The notes under the pieces were generated by a model that did no database searches, was not told where the DNA came from, and worked only from the letters and a program-made list of their open reading frames with translations. Both the position numbers and the translations under genes were made by a program. A DNA stretch of 64,000 nt from a virus. The stretch is from the IMG/VR virus record IMGVR_UViG_3300050821_010639, positions 64,001 to 128,000 of that record; one strand, given 5' to 3'. Of this stretch, positions 3,248 to 60,000 are shown piece by piece (within the stretch, counting starts at the first letter, position 1; each line of letters starts with the position of its first letter).

Positions 3248-3466
3248 CTAGCGCCCCCTGGTACGGCTCCTGGCCACGTACGCGCGCCCGTCACGCGCCT
3301 CGCGCGAGTTGGCCACAGCGCGCAGCGTGCGCGCCTCACTGGCGGGAATAGACAGCAGCGCGCTGCGGTCGGCGAGGCGCCGTACCTCTGGCGTGGGGAC
3401 GTCGCGCACGTCAGCGATGACGCGGCATGCCCGCGCGAGGCGCGCGCGGAACGTTCGGTCTTTCAT
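3248..3466 (-). CDS. Small basic hypothetical protein
   Basis: Leader CAGGTGAGGCACCATG; follows promoter copies at 3494/3517. Confidence 0.55.
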   Translation of the reverse strand: MKDRTFRARLARACRVIADVRDVPTPEVRRLADRSALLSIPASEARTLRAVANSREARDGRAYVARSRTRGR

Positions 3467-3582
3467 GGTGCCTCACCTGTATGAGTCGGGTTGCTTGACA
3501 CGAGTCTAGCGCATGGCTTGACCGCAGACAAGGCAAAAGCGCCCCCTGGCCGTACGTGGCCAGGGGGCGCTGTGGAGGGTCG

Positions 3583-3918
3583 CTAGCCGGCCAGCGCGGC
3601 GGCTACGGCCTTGCGGAAACGGTACGGAGTGAGCATGCGGTCCGCGTAGGCGCGCGCCGCGTCCTGCAGCGCCGGCGAGGCGCCCAGCAGTGCCCGCGCG
3701 TCGTCCGCCGCCGCGTGGTAGCCGTCGGAGTGCCCCGTGCGCTCAAGCTCGTCAGCCACGTGGGCTACCTCGATGGCGCGCGGCGGAAGCTTCTCCTGAG
3801 CGCACCATTCGTCGGCGTACAAGCCGAAGTCCCGGTCATGGGTGAGGCACACGCGGATAGCCGCGTCCCCCTCGACTTGCTCGTAAACGCATGACTGCTG
3901 TGCTGTGTCGGTTGCCAT
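3583..3918 (-). CDS. Hypothetical protein, probably leaderless
   Basis: ATG about 7 nt after the -10 (TACATT) of the 3939 promoter; terminator hairpin at about 3538-3571. Confidence 0.6.
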   Translation of the reverse strand: MATDTAQQSCVYEQVEGDAAIRVCLTHDRDFGLYADEWCAQEKLPPRAIEVAHVADELERTGHSDGYHAAADDARALLGASPALQDAARAYADRMLTPYRFRKAVAAALAG

Positions 3919-4004
3919 GCCCCCAATGTAGTGCACGGCTTGACTGGAGTCAAGACGCCGGCGCACCCCGGGAAGGCATCTCCCGGGGTGCGCTGGTGAG
4001 GGGC

Positions 4005-4421
4005 TTAGAACACGGCCAGCGCGTTCAGCACAGCCTCGTCAAGGCCGCGCTGGGTAGGCGCCCCGGTAGCGGCGGCGCGCACGGAGGGGAAACGGGCCAG
4101 CATCGCGCACGCCATCTCGCGGGCGCCGCCGTACTCGCCCGCGTCCCCGCCTACCCGGCTGATGGCCGTGCGCACGGCTGTTACGACGTCAGCCGCGCCA
4201 CTGGCGGGCTCGTCACCCGGCACCGCGTAAACGGCCAGGTCGATGTCCCGTTCGGCGATCGAGCCCAGAGGGTTGACCACGCCGCGCGCGATTTCGGTCG
4301 CGTGCCGCGGGCCCGTGATGCCCTGCACCGCACTGTCTAGGTAGAACGTCGGGACGGACACGCTCCCGTGCCAGTCTCCGTTGTGCGTGAGGATTTGCCC
4401 GGTTACCGCGTACATCGTCAT
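4005..4421 (-). CDS. Hypothetical protein
   Basis: GGGGCAGGCACC-ATG leader, promoter 4473, terminator hairpin at about 3963-3991. Confidence 0.65.
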   Translation of the reverse strand: MTMYAVTGQILTHNGDWHGSVSVPTFYLDSAVQGITGPRHATEIARGVVNPLGSIAERDIDLAVYAVPGDEPASGAADVVTAVRTAISRVGGDAGEYGGAREMACAMLARFPSVRAAATGAPTQRGLDEAVLNALAVF

Positions 4422-4499
4422 GGTGCCTGCCCCTGCTAGTCGGTTGCGCTTGCTCACGAGGATAGGTGAGAGCTTGACACGAGTCAAGCCATGCACGTG

Positions 4500-4593
4500 A
4501 GGCGCTGTAAGGCCCGTAGCGGCACGCTGGCGAGTTGGGTAGTCAGGGGCACGCGGCGAGGCGCTTAGGGGGCGCTACGGGCCTTACAGCGCC
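4500..4593. repeat. Long inverted repeat (22-bp arms)
   Basis: AGGCGCTGTAAGGCCCGTAGCG ... CGCTACGGGCCTTACAGCGCCT. Confidence 0.7.
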
Positions 4594-4744
4594 TCGCGCG
4601 GGCACTTGCGCCGGCTCTCCCAGTACGGAACTTGTCGGCACCCGGTATTACCCGCTTCCCGCATCACGCCTACGTGCGCGGACAGCGCAGCGCCCCCGGT
4701 AGGGCTTTGACCCCCGGGGGCGCTGTGGCAGCAGGCGCTAGCGC

Positions 4745-5002
4745 TTACGCGCGCCCCGCCCGTGGCCGGCCGTACCTCTCCGCCCACGCCTTTGCGCTGG
4801 CCAGCGTGCGGTAGTAAGGCGAGTGCTGGTCATACGGGTATCCGGCCACGGTCGCGCGCCACGTGTTCCCGTCTCCCGGGAAGTTGGTCACGGTGGCGCT
4901 GTGGTACTCACTCGCGCCGCGCCATTCCGTGTAGCGCTTCCCCTCAAAGTCGAAGGGCTTGCGCGCCCATGTCATTGCGTACGGGTCGGCTGCCTCGCTC
5001 AC
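4745..5002 (-). CDS. Hypothetical protein
   Basis: Globular-looking ORF directly downstream of 5005..5265. Confidence 0.6.
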   Translation of the reverse strand: MSEAADPYAMTWARKPFDFEGKRYTEWRGASEYHSATVTNFPGDGNTWRATVAGYPYDQHSPYYRTLASAKAWAERYGRPRAGRA

Positions 5003-5004
5003 GG

Positions 5005-5265
5005 CTAGCGCCCGTTCCTGGCCAGCGCGGCACGGTGCTGGACTGCCGCGCGCAAGCGGCTACGCGGTGAGCGGGTGCGGTGCGCGATGATGGTTCGCAC
5101 CATGCGCAGCTGGGTTAGCGCCTCGCCGGTAACCGGCCCGGGGACCTGCGCGCGGTAAGCCGGCTCGCACGCGCGCAGCTCTGCCGTTGTCATGGCGGAT
5201 GCCGCGCGGTAAGCCTCGCGCCTCGCGTGCGCTATGGCCCGGTCAATTAGCGGTGCCCTGGTCAT
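5005..5265 (-). CDS. Hypothetical protein
   Basis: Leader box at 5270, promoter at 5333. Confidence 0.6.
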   Translation of the reverse strand: MTRAPLIDRAIAHARREAYRAASAMTTAELRACEPAYRAQVPGPVTGEALTQLRMVRTIIAHRTRSPRSRLRAAVQHRAALARNGR

Positions 5266-5431
5266 GATGTGCCTGCCCTTGCTCTGGCCGCGCCGTGGCG
5301 GCGCGCGCTCTGCTTACGAGGATAGGTGAGCGCTTGTCTTGAGTCAAGACGGGATCTTAGGCGGGCACGACAAATCCCCGCCGTTCATCTTCCATCGATG
5401 AACGGCGGGGACTGTCACACCTGAGGCCAGG

Positions 5432-5779
5432 CTACCCGTGTACGGGGCAGCTCGTGCCCGCGCACGCCTCACGTGAGCACGCGCCGGGCATCTCCGCGCG
5501 GTACGCGGCGAGGCCGGCCGGCATGGTTTCCGGGTAGTGCTGCCAGCGCCAACGGCACTCCCCGCACGCGCCGCACGCGCCGCACGCGCCGCGCCACAAG
5601 TCGCAGTAAGTGAAGTTCCGGCAGAACGCGCACCAGCCGTAAGCCGGCGCGCGGTCGGGCTGGCCGGCGCCCCCGCTTGACTGGTACGCCTCGTTGTCCG
5701 CGTGACCGTGGTCAACGGCGTAGTCCCCGTAGGTGTCCGCCGGCGCGCTGCTGTCAAAGCCTGCACTGAAACTCGGCAT
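5432..5779 (-). CDS. Cys-rich hypothetical protein
   Basis: CAFC, CGACGACGEC motifs; leader box 5784, promoter 5831. Confidence 0.6.
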   Translation of the reverse strand: MPSFSAGFDSSAPADTYGDYAVDHGHADNEAYQSSGGAGQPDRAPAYGWCAFCRNFTYCDLWRGACGACGACGECRWRWQHYPETMPAGLAAYRAEMPGACSREACAGTSCPVHG

Positions 5780-5841
5780 GATGTGCCTGCCCTAGGTCGG
5801 TGGGTGTCTGCTTGCCACGATAGGTGAGAGCTTGACTTGAG

Positions 5842-6138
5842 TCAAGCGTTAGCGCTGCACTCACAGCCTGCGCTAGGCAGGGGCGGGATGGGGCCGACAT
5901 CACCGGGCCGGCGTATGGCGAACATCTCGACCATGGGCGAGGCGCTGTAGGGCACGTAGCGGAACACGCGCGCGAACGTGCCGGCCGGCTCGCACGTGGT
6001 CGAGATGTCACGCGCCGCGCGCTCTAGCCGGTCCGTGAGCGTGCCGTAACCCTCCCGCCCGCTAACCCACTGGCCCCATTTCCACTGGCCGTTTGGGCGG
6101 TAGACCTCTACCCGGTAGTTGCGCCCCATGTCGTTCAT
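5842..6138 (-). CDS. Hypothetical protein
   Basis: Both leader boxes and promoter 6188. Confidence 0.65.
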   Translation of the reverse strand: MNDMGRNYRVEVYRPNGQWKWGQWVSGREGYGTLTDRLERAARDISTTCEPAGTFARVFRYVPYSASPMVEMFAIRRPGDVGPIPPLPSAGCECSANA

Positions 6139-6256
6139 GACTGCCTGCCCTTGCTAGTCGGTTGCCTGCCACTACGATAGGTGAGAGCTTGACTTGAGTC
6201 AAGACACAAGCTAGCCCCGGTAGGCGACCCCTACCGGGGCTAGCTGTCGACCCGGC

Positions 6257-6478
6257 CTAGCGCCTCGCGCGGGACCTGGCCGCGCCTCGCCGCGTGCGGT
6301 CAGCGCTGCTGTCGCGCGAGGCGCGCGCCACCTTGAAGCCTCGCGAGGCGCTGTAGGTGACCCGTACGCCCATCCTGACTACAGCGCCCGCGGTCCGCGC
6401 GTCAGCGAGGATTGACCGCGCTGTGTCGGGCGAGTAGCGGTAGCTGGCCAGCGTCGCGATTGCGTCGATGTCTTGCAT
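6257..6478 (-). CDS. Hypothetical protein
   Basis: Leader box 6483; terminator hairpin at about 6209-6245. Confidence 0.55.
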   Translation of the reverse strand: MQDIDAIATLASYRYSPDTARSILADARTAGAVVRMGVRVTYSASRGFKVARASRDSSADRTRRGAARSRARR

Positions 6479-6515
6479 GACGTGCCTGCCCTAGTTCGGT
6501 GCGGATGGGTGGGGG

Positions 6516-6785
6516 TTAGCGGGTGCGGTTCGCGCGGCGCGAGGCCTGCGAGGCGCGGCGGCCGGCCTTGCGGGCGCACTGCTGCTGACGCGTGCGGGGG
6601 GCACGCTCCGGGCGCCACATGGTGTTGTCCGCGCGCGTCATGGCGGCCGGAGCGTAGCGCCCGTAGGCCGCGCGCAGCGCCTGCCAGGTAACGCCGTAGC
6701 GCGCGGCGCTCTCCGCCCACGTACGGCCCGCCTCGCGGTCGCTGGTGATGGCCGCGTGCATGTCCGGGGTGACTTCGATGCTCAC
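6516..6785 (-). CDS. Small helix-turn-helix protein
   Basis: RTWAESAARYGVTWQALRAAY is HTH-like; GTG start after leader box 6790. Confidence 0.5.
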   Translation of the reverse strand: MSIEVTPDMHAAITSDREAGRTWAESAARYGVTWQALRAAYGRYAPAAMTRADNTMWRPERAPRTRQQQCARKAGRRASQASRRANRTR

Positions 6786-6934
6786 TGGTTGCCTGCCCTT
6801 GCTAGTCGGTTGGCGTCTTGCCCTGCCCACCAGTATGCATGAACGCTTGACTTGAGTCAAGAGGATTCGGGAGACGGGAACACGACAGCGCCCCCGGGAA
6901 GCACCTTCCCGGGGGCGCTGCCAGCGCGGGGCGC

Positions 6935-8002
6935 CTAGGCGAGAGCGGCGGTAAGCCTCTCGCCCATGACCGACGCGAGAGCGTCAAGCGCCTGCGCGTC
7001 TTCCTTGGCCGTGACTCCGGTCACCATGTTGAGGTAGGTGCGCTCCATCCGGCCGCCGTCGGCACCTGAGACGTTGCGCTTCCACGTGTTGTGGGTGTTG
7101 CTCAGCTGAATGACGCCGAACGCGGTACCCGCCCACGGGCGCACCTTGGCATCGTGCCGCCACATCGCCTCGTACGTCTCGCGCAGCTTGACCGCGTTCG
7201 TGTACCTGGCCCCGCCAGTGCTCGACTTGGGGTCAGCGGCGGGAACCGGGGCCACCAGGGCCAGCCACGCGGCGAAGTCCGCCTCAGTGACGTCCACCGA
7301 CTGGAGAGCGGCGGCGGCCTGCGCGAACTCGTCTCCGGCCTGGTAGACCAGTCCCAGCGCGTCGCGCACCTCGGTCAGCTTGCCGATGCTGTTACGCGAG
7401 TGCTTGACCTTGAACTTGGTGCGCGCGGAGGAAAGCGCCGCAGCGAGCGTGTTATCACATACCGCTGCGGTCACCCCCGTGGCGTAGGTGCTGGAGAGCG
7501 TCCCGTCTACCGACGTCGCGGCCAGGATGTAGGGGGTGAACTCGAAACCGCCCACCTCAAGACCCGATCCGGTCAGCTGCGCTTGCATGAACGCGACGCC
7601 GCGGTTGCGCAGCAACCCGACGGACTTGGTGCCCAGTTCGCCGCGCGAGGTGTCGAGAATGGCGGCGATCTGGTCGGCCGTCCACTCCTTGTACCCGTGC
7701 ACCTGGTAACCCTGCTTGAAGACGCCGAGCACCGCGCCGTTGTCCGGGGTGACGATGACCTTGCGGGAAGGGTCCTTGATGACCTGGCGGTTACCGTCCG
7801 CGTCGGTGTACTGCGCGAACATCTCGGCTTCCGCGAACTCGACCGACAGCAGCCGCTCAACCTCCTCGGTCGGAACGGGCCCGTCGAAGTGCGAACCGTC
7901 GGTCATGTACTCGCCGCTTGCCGCCCACCAGGCCGGCCCGTCCGACCCCACGTAACCTACGCGGATGTTGGAGCGGAGCCATTCCATCGTTTCCTTGCTC
8001 AT
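6935..8002 (-). CDS. DUF932-family phage/plasmid protein
   Basis: PYILAATSVDGTLSS...VCDNTLAAAL...KVKHSRNS signature and WAGTAFGVIQ C-terminus; terminator at about 6886-6920. Confidence 0.75.
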   Translation of the reverse strand: MSKETMEWLRSNIRVGYVGSDGPAWWAASGEYMTDGSHFDGPVPTEEVERLLSVEFAEAEMFAQYTDADGNRQVIKDPSRKVIVTPDNGAVLGVFKQGYQVHGYKEWTADQIAAILDTSRGELGTKSVGLLRNRGVAFMQAQLTGSGLEVGGFEFTPYILAATSVDGTLSSTYATGVTAAVCDNTLAAALSSARTKFKVKHSRNSIGKLTEVRDALGLVYQAGDEFAQAAAALQSVDVTEADFAAWLALVAPVPAADPKSSTGGARYTNAVKLRETYEAMWRHDAKVRPWAGTAFGVIQLSNTHNTWKRNVSGADGGRMERTYLNMVTGVTAKEDAQALDALASVMGERLTAALA

Positions 8003-8110
8003 TGCGTGCCTGCCCTTTCACTGCCGGGGGCGTGTCCCCCTTGCTTGACTTCAGTTAACCAGACGTCGCCTGTACGTGTCAAGTCCCTCCCGACACGTAC
8101 CGCTCAGCTT

Positions 8111-9319
8111 CTACGCGGGCACCCGGACCTTGGCCGCGGGCACGATGGCATAGCCGCGCGTGGCCCCGTCCGAGCGCTTGAGCGCCGCTACCTCGTTCGG
8201 CATGCCCTTGGCGCGCTCCCAGTTAAGGACCGTGCCAGCGTCCCGCACAGCGGCGCTGCGCGCCTCGCTGCGCCTGGCGTAGGCCGCGCCCACCCATGTG
8301 CGCGTGTCCCTGGCCTCGCCCGGCTCACGCGTTACGCGCATCACGCGGAACGGGCCCCCCGCGCTGTCCTCCGCCTGCGCGGTCACGAGGCGCGCGCGCA
8401 CCGACCCGGCGGCCGGCCCGCCCGGCGCAGTCGCCTGCTGCGCGGCGCTCACCCGCTCGGCGCGCGCGTTCTCGGCGTTCACGAACACCGCGTGAGCCGA
8501 CGCGCCGGCCCCGGTAATGGTGTACTGCTGCGGTTCACCCTTGGCTATGTTGCCCTTGACCATCTTGATGACGCGCAACTCGGGGTCATCCTTGGTGCGC
8601 TCCACCATGAACGCGAGGCGCAGCGCGTCGACAACCGCCGGCGATCCGGAGACCTTCCCGTCCTTGGTCAGGTGGTGGATGACACCCAGCGCCACGTCCG
8701 CTTGCCGCGCGAACTGCTTAAGCGACCGCATCACCATGCGCGCGGACCGCACCGAGGTGATGTGGTCGTTTTCGCCTAGCAGGTCGGCCAGCGGGTCGAT
8801 GACCACCAGGGCGACCGCGGGCCCGCCAACTCGGTTGAGCTTGCCCACCTCCGTCAGCAGGCGCCCCATGTCCCCGGGCACCTCGAAGGGGGAACCGTCT
8901 TTCCACTCGGACAGGTCGTGCACCAAGCGGATAGCGCCGCTCTCTTCCGACAGCGAGGGGTCGAGGCCGAATTCCGCGACCGCGACCGCTATAGCCGCGC
9001 GCAGGCGCGGTGCCAGGTCCTCGAACGGGTCGTCTTCGGTGCCGGCGATGTAGACCACGCGCCCGGGGTCGCGCCGTACGGCCTGGTCCTCGTTGGGAAA
9101 CGGCAAGCCGAGCGCGACCCGCGCGATGACCGCACAGAACAGCATGCCCTTGCCTGCCCCGCCAACAGCCGCGAACAGCGCGGGGTTGCCAATGGGGATG
9201 TAGTCCGGCCACAGCCAGCGGCGCGGTATGTACGGGATATTGGAGTAGTCGACCGCAGCCAGGTCGTCAGCGTCGACCGGCCCGACGTCGCCCGCGGGCG
9301 CGTCGAAGATAAACGACAT
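8111..9319 (-). CDS. AAA_25 / RecA-fold (RepA-like) ATPase/helicase
   Basis: RWLWPDYIP, Walker A AVGGAGKG, Walker B LVVIDP, HHLTK motif. Confidence 0.8.
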   Translation of the reverse strand: MSFIFDAPAGDVGPVDADDLAAVDYSNIPYIPRRWLWPDYIPIGNPALFAAVGGAGKGMLFCAVIARVALGLPFPNEDQAVRRDPGRVVYIAGTEDDPFEDLAPRLRAAIAVAVAEFGLDPSLSEESGAIRLVHDLSEWKDGSPFEVPGDMGRLLTEVGKLNRVGGPAVALVVIDPLADLLGENDHITSVRSARMVMRSLKQFARQADVALGVIHHLTKDGKVSGSPAVVDALRLAFMVERTKDDPELRVIKMVKGNIAKGEPQQYTITGAGASAHAVFVNAENARAERVSAAQQATAPGGPAAGSVRARLVTAQAEDSAGGPFRVMRVTREPGEARDTRTWVGAAYARRSEARSAAVRDAGTVLNWERAKGMPNEVAALKRSDGATRGYAIVPAAKVRVPA

Positions 9320-17098: not shown

Positions 17099-17778
17099 GA
17101 TGTGCCCCTCTCGGTTGCCTGCTCCGAGTCTAGGGCATGGCTTGACTCAAGTCAAGAAGTCTGGTGATGTCCCCTGGTGTGCACGTCCACCGCGATGTCG
17201 CCCAGCACGTTGCCGGCGTGCCCGAGCAGCTGCAAGAGCACCGCCGCGAACACCGACACGCAGGGCCGGCAGACCCGCGGCATCCTCGGCTGGCCGTCAG
17301 GCGTCATCACCGGGACGTGCAGCGCGGGCGAGTCCTGGTCGCCGCACAGCGCGCACGCCAGCCCGGGAACCATCATGACCTCGGTCTTGCGGTCGGTCAC
17401 GGCCAGCCCTTCCACTCAGTGGCGATGCTGAGCCTGGCGGCGCCCCTCAGCAGGATGGCCGAGCGCTCCCGGCTGCGCGCGGGCAGGTCCACGTAAGCGA
17501 ACAGCCGAGCGCGGGCCGCCGCCACCAGGCGGACCAGGCCGAGCACGTGCGCCGCGTCCCGGCTGTCCTGCTCGGACATCACCCAGTCGCCCGCGCTGGT
17601 GCCTGACGCCTCGCGCAACAGGCGGGCGAACAGCACCCGGTCGTTGTCGCCCTGGCCGTCGCGCAGCTCTCTCAGCAGGCCCTCGCCGTCGGTACCGTCG
17701 TTCATTTTTCTTAACCCCCCACAGGTCAGGGCGGGTGCCGGCCGGCACCCGCCCTTTACTTCCTACGCCGTGCGGTGG

Positions 17779-23437: not shown

Positions 23438-23850
23438 TCGAAGCTCACTGTCTGCCCGGCCAGCGCCAGCGCCCGCTCGTAGCTGCCAGCGTCGAAGATG
23501 GCCTGACGGAACTCGCGAAGCTCGGCCAGCGGGACGGCCCGAGCGCGCATCGCACCCAGCGTCACGGACAACAGGACTGCGGTGTCGCCGTCATGCAGCG
23601 ACGCGCGCTTCACCCGGACGTCCGGGTAGCGGACGGGCTCGCCAGGGCCGAACTCGGTGGCCAGCACGTCGGCGACCATCTGCTCGTGGTACTCGGCAAC
23701 GTCAACCGGCACGATAGCAGCGATGCGCTTGCCGCTGCTGGCCAGCCAGGTCTTGCGGTCCTGGGCACCGGCCAGGTCGGCCGCGTCCTGCACTTCTTCG
23801 GCCAGCTCCTCGTCGTTCCTGACGTCCAGCTCGATCGTCTTCTCGTCCAT
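23434..23850 (-). CDS. Protein with Phd/YefM-like N-terminus and a conserved phage C-terminal domain
   Basis: TWLASSGKRIAAIVPVD is Phd-like; both leader boxes, promoter 23896. Confidence 0.5.
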   Translation of the reverse strand: MDEKTIELDVRNDEELAEEVQDAADLAGAQDRKTWLASSGKRIAAIVPVDVAEYHEQMVADVLATEFGPGEPVRYPDVRVKRASLHDGDTAVLLSVTLGAMRARAVPLAELREFRQAIFDAGSYERALALAGQTVSFE

Positions 23851-23917
23851 GTGCCTGCCCTTCGGTTGGTTGCCTGGTTACAGGGTAGCCTAATGCTTGA
23901 CTTGAGTCAAGACACGC

Positions 23918-24465
23918 CAAAGCCCCGCGGGCAGGGCAGGCAACCGAGATCCGCGGGGCTTCAACGAGAGGGGGAGCCACCGTCTACACACGGCTCAGGA
24001 GAACCCTCGCTAAGCGACAGGCAGGCCAGCTGGCCTGCCTGTCACGCTCTTGAGTTGTACGCGGGTGCCGGGAGCGGACCAGCCCGTCGACTGGAACCTC
24101 CCGGCCCCCACTTCGCTCCGTGTGGGGTGCACCTAAAGCCGCAGGGAGCGCGTCCGCGACCTTCCACACTTGCTCCCGGGCCAGGGGTTTCACTGGTCCG
24201 TAGCGGTGTTGCAGGCCGCCAATGTCCGTACGCTGCCCCGAGGGGCCCGTACTAGCTTGGGCTTAGGTCAAGCTCACGCGTTCGCCAGGTACTCGACCTG
24301 GCCCGGGAAGTCTCTGTTGAGTTATATCCGGCTTACCCTGCCCTTGTGAGTGAGGCCCTGGGCGGGAGGGGCTGCGACTCGCGCTGTAGCCGGTGCTGCT
24401 ACCTTTCTGGGCGCTCCTGGCCGGTCCTCCTCTTGCCTGCTCGCTGACCTTCCGGCCTCGCTCAC
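23918..24465 (-). ncRNA. Putative large (~550 nt) structured non-coding RNA with an anti-leader terminal loop
   Basis: Own promoter TTGACA-18-TATCCT (24501-24472); helices 24454-65/24346-57, 24297-308/24174-85, 24312-20/23961-70, 24067-74/24098-105, 28-bp palindrome 24016-43, terminal hairpin 23920-61 followed by UUU. Confidence 0.7.
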
Positions 24466-25057
24466 ATTCAAAGGATAAGGGATCGACTTGACTCGTGTCA
24501 AGTGATCTCCGGTATTTCCTCTCCGCCAGGCTGACCAGGGCCGGAGCCGGGCCGGTAACGCGCTCCTGGGGCCCGCGCTCGCGCTGCCACGCCACGGCCA
24601 GGCCCAGCCGGGCCCGCCAAGCGAGCGCGGACACCGCGTTGGGGCTCATGCCGGAGGTTCGCGCCAGCTCGGCCGGCGTGCGCCCCTCCACCTCGGTCTG
24701 CCACAGCACCGCGCGCCAGCGGGGCGGCAGCGAGTCGAACGCGCGACGGGTCATCCGCTGCTCCTCGGCCGCGGTCGCCAGGTCCCCGGCGCCCGGCACG
24801 CGCACCATGCGAGGATCGAGCGGCACGGGGTCGATGCGCCTGCGCTCGGCCAGCCAGTCGCGTGCCAGGTTGCGCACCGCGGCCAGCAGGTAGGGCCGGA
24901 ACGCGCCGTCGGGGCCGTGGCCGGCCCGCTGCCTGGCCAGCACCCGGGTGAACGCCTCCGCCACGATGTCATCGGCCGCGTGCGCGGGCACCAGGGCCAG
25001 GGCCACGCGGCGCGCGGCGCTCCGGTGCTCGGCGTACAGGTCGGCGAACTCGGGCAT
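24263..25057 (-). CDS. ECF-type RNA polymerase sigma factor
   Basis: Region 2 (ADDIVAEAFTRVL, FRPYLLAAVRNLARD) and region 4 (LPPRWRAVLW...TPAELARTSGMSPNAVSALAWRAR); the tail beyond about 24500 runs into the ncRNA. Confidence 0.85.
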   Translation of the reverse strand: MPEFADLYAEHRSAARRVALALVPAHAADDIVAEAFTRVLARQRAGHGPDGAFRPYLLAAVRNLARDWLAERRRIDPVPLDPRMVRVPGAGDLATAAEEQRMTRRAFDSLPPRWRAVLWQTEVEGRTPAELARTSGMSPNAVSALAWRARLGLAVAWQRERGPQERVTGPAPALVSLAERKYRRSLDTSQVDPLSFECERGRKVSEQARGGPARSAQKGSSTGYSASRSPSRPGPHSQGQGKPDITQQRLPGPGRVPGERVSLT

Positions 25058-32765: not shown

Positions 32766-32955
32766 GCGCCCGCCCTTCTCTCGGTGCCTGTGGTCCCATC
32801 GTAGGCCATGGCTTGACTCTGGTCAAGCAAAGAGCGGCCCCCGCACCAGGGGTGGTGGGCGGGGGCCGCTCGCTCAGGGGTGCCGGGTCAGGAGTACCTG
32901 CCCTTCGGTTGATTTCCTGGCTACAGGTTAGGTTACGGCTTGACTTGAGTCAAGA

Positions 32956-57000: not shown

Positions 57001-60000
57001 AGCCTTTTCGACAAATCCGAAAAAGACTTCGGCTCCGAACTGAATCGTGGACCAGACAGCGGAGCCGGAGACCTTCAGCCACTGCCAGGCCTGCGCCCCG
57101 GATTCCCGCAGGCCCTTCCAGACGTAGCCCCAGGCCGAGGACCCGGCCGAGGACAGGAAGCCCCACGTCGCGGAGCCGGAGACCTTCAGCCACTGCCAGG
57201 CCTGTGCCCCGGCCTCCTGGAGCCCCTTCCACACGTCCCGGGTAAAGCTGTTGTCGGCTGCGGCCTGCATGACGTGCCAGAAGCCGGTGCCGGTGTCCTT
57301 GATGAAATCGAACGCCTTGACCGCAGCCCCGCTGATTTCGCCCCAGACGGTATCCCAGGTCGCCATGAGCGCCTGGCCGTGGGTGGCCCACCAGGGGTCG
57401 AAGTTGGAGGCGACCCAGCTGGTCACGTCACCGAACCCGCGTACCACCGGCGCCGCCACGTCGCGCCAGGTGTTGTTCCAGGCCGTGCCGAAAGCGTGCG
57501 GAACCGACTGGGTGAACCAGTCGAACATGCCGTCCCAGGCTGCCTCGAAGGTCCTCGCTACCGGGCCCCACACAGCGCCGAACCCGTGCGGCACCGACTG
57601 GGTGAACCAGTTGACCGCCCCGTCCCACGCGGACTCCACGGCGTGGACGGAGACCTTCGCCGCCTCCGGCAGGTCGTGCACGAAGAACTGGCCGATCGCG
57701 TGGTTCATGATCTCCAGGCCGCGCTGTACCTGGGGAATCCACGCGAGGAACGTCAGCTCGTAGAACGTGCCGTCTTTGAAGGACTTGAGCAGCGTGTCGA
57801 CCTCGCCCGGCTTGACCAGGTTCGCCGTAGAGCTGGCCGTTGCCGCCAGCTGGCCGCGCAGCTTGCTCAGGCTCGCGTTGTCAAGGTCGGAGACATCGCC
57901 CTTGGTGGCCTTGAGCTTGTCCTGCAGGGCCTTAAGCTCCAGGTCCTTGATCTCCGTCTCGACCTGGAGCTTCTTCTTCCCGGTCAGGCCCGGCAGCTCG
58001 GCCTTGAGCTTGTCCGCCTTCTGGAGTGCCTGGACCGCGTCCAGCTCGTAAGTGGTCTTGACGCTCTTCGGGAGCGCGGTGACCTGGACCCACAGCGCGT
58101 TCGCCTGCTTGGCGCTCAGCCCCATCGCCTCGCCGAAGCCCACGAAGTTGGCCTTGGCGCTCGCGCTGCTGCCGGAGACCGCGAGCAGCTCAGCGGCCAC
58201 GTTGTGCGCCGCCGCCGCGGTAGCGGCGCTGGACGGGCCGGACTTGGCCAGCGCGTCGGCGAACGTGTTGAAGACCGCCTGCCCGCCGTGGGCATTGAAG
58301 ATGGCGGCGGCCATCGCCGGGTTGAGCAGGCTCTGCAGGGTGTTAGTCAGCCGGGCCGCGTCCTGGCTCAGGTTGGAGGCCCCGATGGCAGCGTCGCTGC
58401 TGGCCTTGTACAGGGCCTGCAGCGGGTCGACGGCGTTGCCCACCCACTGCTGCAGAACCTTGATGTTGTCGGTGGCCGGGCCGCCCGCCTCCTGGGCAAG
58501 GGCGGAGATCTGGGCCGCGGCCTCCTTGCTGCCGCCGGCCATGGGGATGAGGGTGGCGACCGCGTTCTTGACGAACGCCGTGAAGTTGCCGCCGCCGGCC
58601 AGCGCCTGGGTGTTACGGAACGCGTCGAACAGCTGCTCGACGTTGTTGTAGTTGGACTGGAAGTCGTTCTGCAGGGTGATGCTGGGCCCGCTCAGCCCGG
58701 TCATCGCCGCGCCCGCCTTGGCGGCGTCGGAGTTGAACCCGGCGATGCTCTGCGCCAGGGTGAGGACGGCGGACGGGCCGCCGGCCACCGTCTTGGTGAA
58801 GGTGTCGTAGGCGGTGTTCAGCTTGCCCATCGAGGCGACTTGCGCGGAGTTCTCCAGGTTCAGCGCGTTCAGGTCGGAGCCGATGGCCCCCAGCTGCTGG
58901 CCCATCGCCTGGTACCCGGCGATGAGCCCCTTCACCTGCTGCTCAGCGGTCGCCCAGACGCTGGCCTGGTTGCTGAACAACTGGTTGGTGGTGACCCCGG
59001 CCGCGTTCAGCAGGCTCAGCGCGCCGACGAAGTTCGTCCCGTAGGCCTTGGAGACGTCGCCGACGTGGGTCAGCTCCTCCTGGAGCTTGCCGGACAGGTC
59101 CGACTGAGACGCGGCCAGCTCAGAGGCGTTGCCGACGCCGGTCTGCTGGGCCTTGTTGAGGGTGGTGGTGACCTCGGCCAGGTTGGACACGGTGGTGGAG
59201 ACCACCGTGAGCAGCGACGCCTTCTGAACGGCAGCGCCCATGGCATCGGTGAACTGCTTGGTCTGGTCGGCCCGGGTGCCCAGGTAGACGCCGACGGCGA
59301 TGAGCGCGGCGCCCAGCAGGCCGAGGTCCACGTAGACGTTGGACAGCACCGGGGCAAGGCCGCCGAGCATGGCCAGCAGCCCGCCCCCGCCGCCGACCGC
59401 CTCGGCAGCGCCCTCAGCGCCGGCACCCAGTTCTTCAGCCCCGGTCGCCGCGCCGCCCAGCTTCTCGGCCATCCCGGCCAGCTGGGTGTCGCTCGCGCCG
59501 GCGGCGATGCCCAGGGCGACCGACTTCTTGCCCGCGTCGTCCAGGCCCTCGCTGAACCTCTCCAGCCGGGCCGCCGAGGTGGTGCCGGCCCCGGCCACGA
59601 AGTCTTCGACGCTCTGCCCGGTGGCCTTGATGGAGACGGCGAGCTGGGCCAGCTCCTCCTCGCTGGCCTTGGCCCCGAGCGCGTCGGAAACCGCCCCGAC
59701 CTCGGCGCTGCTCCTGGTGATGTTGACCAGCTGGGTGTTGGTCGCGCCCAGCGCGCGGGCCACCGCCTCCGCCCCGGCGTTGAGGGCGGGGAACTTGCCG
59801 AGGAGCCCGGCCAGCCCGATGACCACCTTGCCCACCACGTCGGCGGCGAGCCCGCCCCACAGCACGATGGCGTGCAGCCCGAGGCCGGCGGCCAGCAGCG
59901 GGGTGGGGGTGACCTTAACGATGTCGGCAGCGATCTTGAGGATGAAGTCACCGATGACGGCCAGGTCCTCGGCCACGTGCGTGAGGGCCGTGGCCTGGAT

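Follow-up and report, generated by a model that had tools for sequence, protein, structure and literature searches.

A modular phage RNA with a terminal loop antisense to the leaders of early genes

The locus and its homologues

The stretch of DNA that we analysed, called the window throughout, covers 64 kb (positions 64,001-128,000 of IMGVR_UViG_3300050821_010639), and all of our coordinates are counted within it. It belongs to the 152-kb genome of a soil actinophage; neither its DNA nor its sigma protein was matched among isolated phages, and it is a neighbouring protein, at ~36% identity, that places the phage among the actinophages. Following the minus strand in the direction of transcription, we meet an ECF-type sigma factor gene (24540-25057; Pfam Sigma70_r2 and r4_2, phrog_1740), a promoter (24472-24501), a modular non-coding RNA of ~550 nt (23915-24465, beginning where transcription is inferred to start and taking in the whole of a 3' hairpin, with 12 homologues) and then the promoter and typical leader, AGGCAACCAACCGAAGGGCAGGCAC, of the next 'cassette' (23851-23910; TTGACT at 23910-05, TACCCT at 23887-82), followed by an ATG at 23850. 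The RNA promoter consists of TTGACA (24501-24496), an 18-nt spacer and TATCCT (24477-24472), just as the initial annotation had it, and is the sole sigma-70-like site between 23700 and 24700, where shuffled sequences gave 0.0. It is a member of the phage's palindromic TTGACnnnAGTCAAG promoter family, and the same promoter stands ahead of the RNA in all full-length homologues.

The initial annotation had seen no credible open reading frame here, and our comparisons agree. Third-position GC runs at 0.90-1.00 in the upstream sigma ORF, collapses near 24530 and does not regain a coding signal until 23850, and no sense-strand ORF of at least 25 aa was common to the eight homologues compared. The sigma frame itself meets no stop until 24263, crossing the RNA promoter and ~200 nt of the RNA; in the homologue L010 the sigma gene ends before the RNA promoter. 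The RNA is also predicted to fold more stably than its shuffled versions (minimum free energy -273.9 versus -251.6 +/- 6.8 kcal/mol, z = -3.3). Given a promoter, the lack of both a coding signal and a conserved ORF, better folding than in shuffles and a set of syntenic homologues, the conclusion that 24465-23915 (-) is a genuine structured non-coding RNA gene with its own promoter is well supported, and the best explanation would be a stand-alone gene belonging to a previously undescribed RNA family.

Eleven of the homologues lie in related high-GC phage genomes of ~150 kb and in soil contigs, each downstream of the same ECF sigma gene, which is 63-86% identical among them while the RNA has been rearranged module by module. 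The twelfth (L084), on a low-GC phage contig, is the core alone ahead of a tRNA array, and Rfam detects only the tRNAs there. In G005 (locus L027), the most distant full-genome relative, the core sits within an RNA of ~1.3 kb. A pattern scan of genome contigs gave 0 matches, and a series of further candidates (L003/L004, L007, L008, L011-L013, L014-L038 except L027, L091 and L092) were set aside as chance pattern matches, since they either fell within coding sequence or lacked the second motif. With Rfam 15 at gathering score there was no match in the whole window, and at E up to 10 the interval 23800-24600 returned only chance matches of 12-25 bits. The RNA had not been recognised at first sight as RNase P, tmRNA, SRP or an intron, and the scan likewise found none of these, nor GOLLD, ROOL or Ms1; 6S, ribozymes and Y RNA/YrlA were also without a match to the RNA.

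Modules, a conserved core and the terminal hairpin

The initial annotation spoke of one large structured RNA. Structured and non-coding it is, but it is not monolithic: it appears as a chain of exchangeable modules, 346-927 nt long across the homologues, whose variable domains are joined by A-rich linkers. All of the modules that follow are on the minus strand. The 5' domain (24346-24465), common to L010, L082 and L087 only, is closed by GUGAGCGAGGCC/GGCCUCACUCAC pairing, so that the predicted pairing of the first 12 nt with 24346-57 is indeed there (24465-54/24357-46, with one C-A mismatch), and it holds a leader-like GCAGGCAAGAGGAGG. Linker 1 (24312-24325), AUAACUCAACAGAG, is a motif that recurs between modules of the homologues and also stands directly ahead of the first tRNA in the phage's tRNA array. 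Beyond the core lies a middle domain of variable hairpins (24059-24168), partly common to L006, L010 and L087 in blastn segments of 72-74% identity, and then linker 2 (24045-24058), ACAACUCAAGAGCG. The perfect 28-nt palindrome reported earlier is present as a hairpin at 24016-24043, with one leader-like arm (GGCAGGCC) and one anti-leader-like arm (GGCCUGCC); L010 and L088 have a hairpin of other sequence in the same position. The 3' domain (23967-24015), with its GAGGG/CCCUC closure, carries variable inserts in homologues. One helix did not survive comparison, the long-range pairing 24312-20/23961-70, which is unconserved: its 5' arm is part of the recurring linker, and L005 has no partner sequence. 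Since the module linkers elsewhere precede tRNAs, the RNA may be processed, and its modules are probably cut apart at these tRNA-type linkers.

The conserved core (24169-24311) scores 94 bits with the covariance model R1 and is present in one copy per genome, a search with the model finding no second copy in any of them. The 12-bp helix 24297-308/24174-85, picked out in the initial annotation, turns out to be P1 of this core (24307-297/24185-175), and within the core a variable P3 hairpin lies between two invariant strands, CUGGCGAACGCGUGAG at 24288-273 and CAACACCGCUACGGACCAG at 24211-193. Over ~115 model positions the core combines covarying helices with ~35 invariant bases. In its alignment 94% of cells are paired and nine pairs have changed on both sides, values that none of 500 shuffles equalled, and pairing falls to 20-49% when the partner columns are slid. 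The covariation that had been called for in homologues is thus found in P1 and in the stem of the 3' hairpin. We think it most likely that the invariant core would bind a conserved cellular protein or machine, with a Y-RNA-like Ro60/Rsr site as one lead. Shared by phages of 70% GC and 45% GC and linked to tRNA arrays, it is an undescribed RNA motif that merits study in its own right.

At the 3' end stands a terminator-like hairpin (23915-23966) of 16 pairs (arms 23966-51 and 23930-15) with a 12-bp G+C-rich core and a 20-nt loop, somewhat longer in the stem than the 11 bp first noted. Across homologues the stems are perfect and 11-17 bp long and the loops span 20-36 nt; the nine distinct homologue stems are 100% paired, with compensatory changes at all 11 of 11 positions, whereas arms swapped between sequences pair at 63%. 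Within the loop (23931-23950), AUCUCGGUUGCCUGCCCUGC, the core UGCCUGCC is invariant in 10 of 10 hairpin-bearing homologues and is mostly preceded by CGGU(U/A). With a core that never changes above a stem that covaries, the loop is constrained as sequence and not as structure. The tails behind the hairpin are U-rich in L006, L009, L010, L087 and L088, with only UUUGG in the window; since the U-tract is weak in the source phage and clearer in its relatives, a terminator role is something that we infer and no more. Our terminator scan takes loops of up to 8 nt, which leaves a hairpin with a 20-nt loop outside its range. The proposal that internal copies could form a pseudoknot masking the loop did not hold up, as such copies occur in some homologues only and the pseudoknot is unconserved.

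The leaders of the early genes and a parallel in Cluster K phages

The loop is the exact antisense of a short leader common to ~25 early genes, UGCCUGCC being the complement of the leaders' invariant GGCAGGCA, and it is the only exact plus-strand copy within the window. There are 28 TTGACnnnAGTCAAG promoters in the genome, 27 of them with an ORF start within 150 nt, and these host-type promoters are shared by the RNA and ~25-30 short 'cassette' mRNAs. The 5' UTRs of these mRNAs are 24-42 nt long. They open with box 1, AGGCAACCGA, and box 2, GAAGGGCAGGCAC, covers the Shine-Dalgarno (SD) position 1-7 nt ahead of the start codon, mostly ATG. When up to one mismatch is allowed, AGGGCAGGCA is present in 37 copies, where shuffles gave 8.5 +/- 3.2, and at ~22 sites, on the gene strand only, a start codon follows within 1-7 nt. 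Exact matches of at least 9 nt to the loop complement number 36 on the gene strand versus three on the other (the loop itself excluded), and in 29 of the 36 cases an ORF of at least 40 aa begins no more than 30 nt further on, which confirms the many matches beside start codons that the initial annotation had listed. Its longest matches are real as well, namely one of 14 nt in the 5' UTR (box 1) at 17109-17122 (-) and two of 13 nt, at 6158-70 and at 6787-6799 (-), the latter lying over the SD 1 nt ahead of the start codon (box 2); all came from an exact-match search. The loop complement had been said to contain both boxes, and in fact it matches box 1 or box 2, but not both together. A separate idea, that the boxes are themselves an ECF-sigma promoter with box 1 as -35 and box 2 as -10, was rejected because their spacing is ~6 nt and not 16-18.

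Antisense complementarity of the loop to leaders across a whole promoter-defined regulon, as first suspected, is also borne out by duplex energies calculated with UTRs that were defined by promoters alone, without use of the motif. In G000 the mean UTR-loop duplex is -21.1 versus -14.6 +/- 1.5 kcal/mol for 200 shuffled loops, and 16 of 24 UTRs contain a perfect loop match of at least 9 nt; G001-G004 give the same energy result. In L005 the adjacent leader departs from the loop complement only where G-U pairs would form, and in L087 the complement of the loop runs collinear with the neighbouring leader, CCGAGC followed by GGCAGGCACC; the substitutions in both are compatible with pairing at the RNA level. 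Co-variation of the loop with the leaders genome by genome did not appear, and a cross-genome matrix of duplex energies had no diagonal, because loop and leaders share the same fixed core.

Leaders of this kind have a precedent. Start-associated sequences (SAS) were described in 2011 by Pope et al., who left open whether their partner is RNA or protein (PMC3203893), and in papers of 2024 and 2025 (PMC11373665 among them) their role is still given as unknown and no RNA partner is named. The SAS and ESAS of Cluster K phages resemble the motif of our source phage in being asymmetric, 10-13 nt long and in one orientation a few nt before mostly-ATG starts; SAS, too, are confined to non-structural early genes, overlap the SD while extending past the pairing with 16S rRNA, and have a single inverted copy away from gene starts. 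As with ESAS, a SigA-like promoter with an inverted repeat often precedes the motif (PMC11373665). The motifs themselves differ, GGGCAGGCA in the source phage versus GGGATAGGAGCCC in Cluster K, and the source-phage motif GAAGGGCAGGCAC does not conform to the SAS consensus; a second box, at the 5' end of the mRNA, further sets the source phage apart from Cluster K, and the two groups of phages are unrelated at the sequence level. To judge from these comparisons, the leader system of the source phage is analogous to SAS/ESAS, not of the same family. Adephagia (Cluster K1) has 16 SAS on one strand and a single inverted copy (record position 58682-94), which is exactly the 10-nt loop of a ~20-bp hairpin in a gene-free gap of 430 bp. 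This region is conserved in 182 phage records, together with a promoter, and published RNA-seq places the start of late transcription in the gap (PMC11373665). The Cluster K parallel is only partial, because in Unicorn, which keeps the consensus SAS, the homologous loop matches SAS at 8 of 10 positions only, and because no inverted SAS is present at the right end of either Pixie (K3) or ZoeJ (K2).

Proposed function and its rivals

Our preferred reading, which we think could about equally well prove right or wrong, makes the RNA a trans-acting repressor of early mRNAs, with the loop pairing to their 5' UTRs and ribosome-binding sites. The loop would bind either box 2, through 10 nt that span the ribosome-binding site, or box 1, through as many as 14 nt; this pairing would stop translation initiation, tag the mRNAs for cleavage, or both, and as the stable RNA accumulated the leader-bearing gene set would be turned off together. 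As expected of a trans-acting sRNA that occludes ribosome-binding sites, the RNA has a conserved seed that is predicted to be single-stranded and is complementary to several mRNA initiation regions. Since the RNA and its proposed targets share a promoter type, the timing would have to arise from accumulation and not from a separate promoter class. The initial annotation had left the choice between a silencer and an orthogonal anti-SD; a trans-acting RNA antisense to the regulon's leaders fits, but nothing in our analyses favours the ribosome-recruiting variant, and silencing is the simpler reading. A point that counts against the preferred reading comes from G005, whose leaders carry GGAAGGCA: a search of its RNA for a matching loop found neither UGCCUGCC nor an anti-GGAAGGCA hairpin.

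Known regulators offer useful comparisons. RNAIII of Staphylococcus aureus, ~514 nt long and one of several sRNAs whose C-rich hairpin loops pair with SD regions, uses pyrimidine-rich loops, including that of its terminator hairpin, to pair with the ribosome-binding sites of several mRNAs and repress them, and it is like the phage RNA in being long, multi-hairpin and, as we propose here, reliant on loop-SD pairing. The two have no sequence or structural homology, and the phage-encoded RNA is modular; its putative targets share one engineered-looking leader, whereas the targets of RNAIII-type sRNAs have generic SD sequences. Phage T4 shuts off early mRNAs at their ribosome-binding sites with the proteins RegA and RegB, and there, as proposed for our phage, an early phage product silences the initiation regions of early genes as a group, although the recognisers are proteins where we propose an RNA loop. 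GOLLD and ROOL (PMC12286853) are large structured non-coding RNAs of phages and prophages, tied like this RNA to tRNA arrays, but theirs is a conserved ornate fold and not an exchangeable module chain with a loop antisense to phage mRNAs.

The first of the alternatives, unlikely but the best placed of them, is that pairing of the loop with box 1 protects the mRNA or delivers a bound factor (the ribosome, or a host Ro60/Rsr-PNPase complex on a Y-RNA-like core), so that translation would be enhanced or degradation directed without simple masking of the ribosome-binding site. The longest matches (11-14 nt) do fall in box 1, with which the UTRs begin at their extreme 5' end, and bacterial Y RNAs (YrlA, YrlB, Yrn1; PMC4201824) resemble the core in having a long stem made of distal 5' and 3' strands with GNCGAAN0-1G on the 5' strand, and resemble the RNA in occurring in tRNA-rich actinophage genomes. 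In the core, GGCGAACG at 24285-24278, invariant in 13 sequences and placed within P2, enclosed by the covarying P1, fits this proposed Rsr-binding motif (PMC4201824); because the motif is short (~6 fixed bases), the agreement is weak evidence. The core strand is also similar to the 5' strand of the YrlA consensus in Rfam, and a sub-threshold YrlA-like tRNA mimic (37.9 bits, E ~1e-6) exists elsewhere in the genome. On the other hand, a tRNA-like domain with mimics of the T-arm and D-arm is missing from the core, its pairing register at the motif differs from the YrlA model, and searches of it for YrlA, Y RNA or tRNA gave no match, for Rfam Y RNA and YrlA even at E up to 10. The TROVE/Ro60 domain (PF05731) is absent from the six phage genomes G000-G005, in which positive controls were found, although a host may supply an Rsr, and cleavage at the linkers would part the core from the loop.

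Improbable, in our view, is a cis insulator, in which the loop would pair, on read-through transcripts only, with the leader that follows 75-90 nt further on, blocking translation of the gene behind it or changing termination so that transcripts from that gene's own promoter alone were translated. Every hairpin has a promoter and leader within ~90 nt behind it, the collinear L087 complement and the G-U-compatible differences of L005 concern just such neighbours, and the weak U-tract in the window would permit read-through. Yet distant leaders match the loop as well or better (14 nt at 17109-22 and 13 nt at 6787-99, versus 9-10 for the neighbour), the loop core remains the same although the neighbouring gene varies (L082, L088, L089), and no SAS gene lies behind the Adephagia hairpin.

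We would also give little credence to a purely DNA-level role, with boxes 1 and 2 as operators downstream of promoters and the loop copy as an extra site between the terminator arms. The promoter family carries an operator-typical palindrome, Pope et al. argue that ESAS repeats are protein-binding DNA sites (PMC3203893), and the loop region is, like any site, double-stranded DNA. The ~30 leader copies, however, keep a single orientation to transcription and a fixed distance from the start codon, which points to a role at the RNA level; in each of two unrelated lineages of phages the sole inverted copy coincides precisely with a hairpin loop, and a loop of 20-36 nt is unusual in a plain terminator.

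Similarly doubtful is the idea that the RNA is a precursor of unrelated small RNAs, a tRNA-array-like operon in which the loop is a by-product without regulatory pairing, for example a captured inverted leader. Modules are freely exchanged between homologues, the linkers are identical to those ahead of tRNAs and YrlA-like elements, L084 has the core alone before its tRNA array and G005 has the core without the loop; but a by-product would decay, and here the loop core has remained invariant while all stems have changed, with Adephagia showing the same arrangement with a different motif. Finally, it is scarcely credible that the region codes for small proteins, whether one or several, or that the sigma factor truly extends into it with its C-terminal tail. 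The sigma frame is open to 24263, sense-strand ORFs of 26-69 aa are present, and in L006 an insertion behind the promoter comprises a 46-codon ORF with a genuine leader; but GC3 drops to background in the RNA region, the sigma tail is unconserved and the L010 sigma gene stops ahead of the promoter, the homologues have no ORF in common and third-position variation is absent from the invariant RNA stretches.

Returning to pairing in trans, we can take the repression of early mRNAs a step further, in a proposal that is distinctly tentative and that we hold with more doubt than the pairing itself: SAS leaders might be the docking sites of a phage antisense loop ('anti-SAS'), forming a regulon-wide translational switch in at least two independent lineages, and in the present phage a Y-RNA-like core might recruit a host RNA-decay or quality-control complex, making the RNA a guided silencer of the phage's own early mRNAs. 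Whatever becomes of that proposal, the locus supplies a concrete and testable candidate for the partner of the unexplained SAS of actinophages, and the same loop arrangement, with a different motif, is found in Adephagia, a well-studied and genetically tractable phage. If the reading is true, translation of a whole block of phage genes would be under the control of one small RNA element, and this would be useful for understanding the developmental timing of phages and for engineering orthogonal control of expression in actinobacteria.

The sigma-linked RNA gene and its homologues

The source record, from which bases 64001-128000 were taken, is a 152,046-bp IMG/VR virus rated complete by CheckV, recognisable as a tailed phage from its tail genes, a Dit-like protein and a primase/helicase-like protein, with a G+C content of about 70% and nearly all of its genes on the minus strand. 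Its host is very probably an actinobacterium, since the sole relatives of one protein near the RNA locus, about 36% identical, lie in phages of Mycobacterium, Microbacterium, Gordonia, Arthrobacter, Streptomyces and Rhodococcus. Isolated phages gave no match to the locus, either by DNA or by sigma protein.

The initial annotation had proposed a promoter-driven RNA of about 550 nt ending in a hairpin, and this is borne out (24465-23915, minus strand). Its promoter, TTGACA-18-TATCCT at 24501-24472 on the minus strand, is the sole sigma-70-like site within 23700-24700. The gene upstream encodes an ECF-type sigma factor (Pfam Sigma70_r2 and r4_2, phrog_1740), and its third-position G+C of 0.90-1.00 collapses near 24530, the frame still being open to 24263. 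The next coding signal appears first at ATG 23850; the intervening stretch of about 550 nt carries no coding signal and folds more stably than its shuffles (z = -3.3), and at the RNA's 3' end a 16-pair hairpin encloses a 20-nt loop. Because the open sigma frame runs through the promoter into the RNA, sigma translation may terminate inside the RNA gene. In the sigma ORF (24263-24540, minus strand) the conserved domains end without a stop codon, and the frame crosses the RNA promoter and then about 200 nt of the RNA, where codon bias equals background; in one homologue (L010) the sigma gene stops just ahead of the RNA promoter, and in another (L005) its tail is different.

Homologues were found by scanning for exact patterns taken from the loop and from two invariant core strings; they lie in five related virus genomes (G001-G005, 125-151 kb), six soil-metagenome contigs and one phage contig of low GC, L084. 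Wherever a high-GC genome has flanks available, the RNA is found downstream of the sigma gene, immediately so in most, with a further gene in between in G005 (L027). In L006 (11425-11575) the RNA promoter is followed first by a full leader with an ORF of 46 codons and only then by the first RNA domain, so that the structured RNA there forms the 3' part of an mRNA. The sigma genes are 63-86% identical, the RNA is alignable in blocks only, and its length ranges from 346 to 927 nt, reaching about 1.3 kb in G005; in this most distant relative it comprises at least five linker-separated domains (L027:763-2160), and no recognisable terminator or anti-leader loop was found there ahead of the next gene. 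Covariation among homologues is seen in the 3' hairpin stem, in the core's closing helix P1 and in its variable hairpin; one long-range helix suggested at the outset is not kept by relatives, nor is the proposed loop-masking pseudoknot conserved in them. We are highly confident that the locus is a real structured RNA gene, and on these sequence comparisons we regard a conserved non-coding transcription unit with covarying helices as established.

Leaders and the anti-leader loop

The 5' UTRs were delimited by promoters alone, the leader motif not being used. The palindromic promoter TTGACnnnAGTCAAG occurs 28 times in the genome, in 27 cases with an ORF start within 150 nt; the -35 hexamer makes up one half of a 14-bp palindrome (23897-23910 and 24488-24501, for example), and this arrangement suggests that all early promoters, the RNA's and the tRNA array's among them, are overlapped by a dimeric repressor operator. 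The UTRs so defined, 24-42 nt in length, are bipartite: box 1 (AGGCAACCGA) lies at the 5' end of the transcript or close to it, and box 2 (GAAGGGCAGGCAC) ends 1-7 nt ahead of a start codon that is mostly ATG. The earlier reading that the loop complement, GCAGGGCAGGCAACCGAGAU, holds both boxes stands in so far as it is box 2 fused to box 1 through their common AGGCA; the loop could thus pair with one box or the other, though not in register with both at once.

Its antisense match to many leaders is upheld: exact copies of the loop complement of at least 9 nt number 36 on the gene strand versus 3 on the opposite strand, with an ORF start (at least 40 aa) within 30 nt downstream in 29 of the matches, and the perfect matches of 14 nt (17109-17122) and 13 nt (6157-6169, 6787-6799) lie where they had been placed. 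Loop-UTR duplexes have a mean energy of -21.1 kcal/mol, versus -14.6 +/- 1.5 with shuffled loops, and the separation is similar in four relatives. As far as sequence can tell, the complementarity is specific to the promoter-defined UTR set. At 32828-32954 (minus strand) a family promoter and a two-box leader (AAUCAACCGAAGGGCAGGUAC) without a start codon are followed by a 13-bp terminator hairpin and then the next promoter; this 'empty cassette' may have degenerated, or may yield a short decoy RNA that titrates the loop.

Nine distinct homologues have nine different perfect 3' stems of 11-17 bp, and all 11 positions counted from the loop carry compensatory changes with 100% pairing, as against 63 +/- 6% when 3' arms are exchanged between sequences (observed value reached in 0 of 1000 trials). 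The loop, 20-36 nt long, contains an invariant UGCCUGCC, usually preceded by CGGU(U/A); that the stem varies so freely while the loop stays fixed points to selection acting on the loop's own sequence. What is fixed in the loop complements GGCAGGCA, the leader part that is fixed across these genomes, and because this common core does not change, the cross-genome comparison revealed none of the genome-specific loop-leader co-variation that had been looked for. In L005 the adjacent leader differs from the loop complement only where G-U pairs would form, and the loop complement and neighbouring leader of L087 are collinear; both findings fit RNA-RNA pairing. The main comparative weaknesses are this absent co-variation and G005, where a matching hairpin was found neither in nor near the RNA and leaders are mostly GGGAAGGCA (= CAGGGAAGGCAC).

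A modular body with a conserved core

A-rich linkers with the pattern A(C/U)AACU(C/G)AA(C/G)AG part the domains of the RNA. The motif recurs, in the studied phage and in its relatives, directly before the first tRNA of an array of 33-37 tRNAs and between tRNA-like elements near the genome end. Given these common linkers, the locus is probably built like a tRNA-array transcript and processed into modules. The studied phage's own array (genome about 3,300-8,470, in L090, outside the window) has 35 tRNA genes, some separated by non-tRNA structured spacers, and is preceded by a family promoter and a structured leader of about 290 nt. At the genome start, also outside the window, L090:760-858 (minus strand) gives a sub-threshold Rfam YrlA (Y-RNA-like) match (37.9 bits, E ~1e-6) with T-arm and D-arm mimics; it is one of these tRNA-like elements, within repeated modules parted by the same linker, ACAACUCAACAG.

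The core (24311-24169) is the one module common to all 13 sequences, and its covariance model finds a single copy in each genome. P1, its closing helix, covaries; the other elements are an invariant CUGGC/G-CCAG helix, a 4x4 internal loop, a short helix in which the middle pair covaries and a variable, covarying hairpin, and about 35 bases of the core never change. In a model-fitted alignment, itself biased towards structure, 94% of cells are paired and nine pairs have changed on both sides; under the same bias, 0 of 500 shuffles were as good and slid controls went down to 20-49%. In L084 (1243-1370, minus strand; soil metagenome contig Ga0137401_10064856, 45% G+C) the core occurs alone: a 17-bp A/U-rich helix closes it, a TTGACA promoter immediately precedes it and six tRNAs (Tyr, Leu, Phe, Leu, Leu, Gly) follow. 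Judged by this solitary copy, core function is independent of the anti-leader loop and, since a low-GC contig shares the invariant bases, the core is a free-standing motif of wide phage distribution.

The core has no match in Rfam. Its invariant 5' strand resembles that of the Rfam YrlA consensus and includes GGCGAACG, matching the GNCGAAN0-1G proposed as a Ro60/Rsr-binding motif (Chen et al., PMC4201824), but the core lacks a tRNA-like domain, and no TROVE/Ro60 protein is encoded in six of these phage genomes, the studied phage included. A Y-RNA-like Ro60/Rsr site is a lead only, and an activating, adaptor or guide role for the RNA, possibly via this core, strikes us as unlikely.

Proposed action and a parallel in Cluster K phages

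We propose that the loop would act in trans by pairing either with box 2, where the duplex would mask the SD region to within 1-7 nt of the start codon, or with box 1; initiation would be repressed or cleavage triggered, and as the RNA accumulates the cassette genes would be silenced together. We give such trans-repression an even chance. Regulators of this type, in which an RNA loop pairs with ribosome-binding sites, are already known, the nearest functional analogue being RNAIII of S. aureus. That the loop acts in cis, on read-through transcripts, seems improbable. Equally doubtful are a DNA-level operator that happens to fall in the loop and a set of unrelated small RNAs sharing an operon, the loop being a by-product. 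Protein coding is very improbable, no ORF common to the homologues having been found.

A partial parallel comes from the start-associated sequences (SAS) of Cluster K mycobacteriophages (Pope et al. 2011, PMC3203893; Adephagia study PMC11373665). Adephagia has 16 plus-strand SAS copies and one inverted copy, the latter within a 430-bp gene-free gap between genes 92 and 93. Folding puts this inverted copy exactly in the 10-nt loop, CCUCCUAUCC, of a hairpin of about 20 bp (L093:38630-38715; record 58,629-58,714), and published RNA-seq has late transcription beginning in the gap (PMC11373665). The region is kept in 182 mycobacteriophage records at identities down to 71%, with a conserved TTGnCG-17-TAGACT promoter upstream; in some records a hypothetical protein is annotated across it. 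Unicorn keeps the consensus SAS, its homologous loop matching at only 8 of 10 positions, and the right ends of Pixie and ZoeJ contain no inverted SAS. Functional tests are still called for in a survey of 188 Cluster K genomes from 2025, which refers to no antisense element.

That two unrelated lineages with different leader motifs each show the antisense of their own motif in a hairpin loop, within a promoter-driven, non-coding stretch, is hard to explain by chance and comes closest to loop-leader co-variation. The Adephagia timing, with the anti-SAS on the leader of the late transcript, fits early-gene shut-off. What is new here is an RNA family absent from Rfam, with a modular, tRNA-array-like build, a dedicated leader/anti-leader pair spanning a whole phage gene set, and a link to the unexplained SAS systems.
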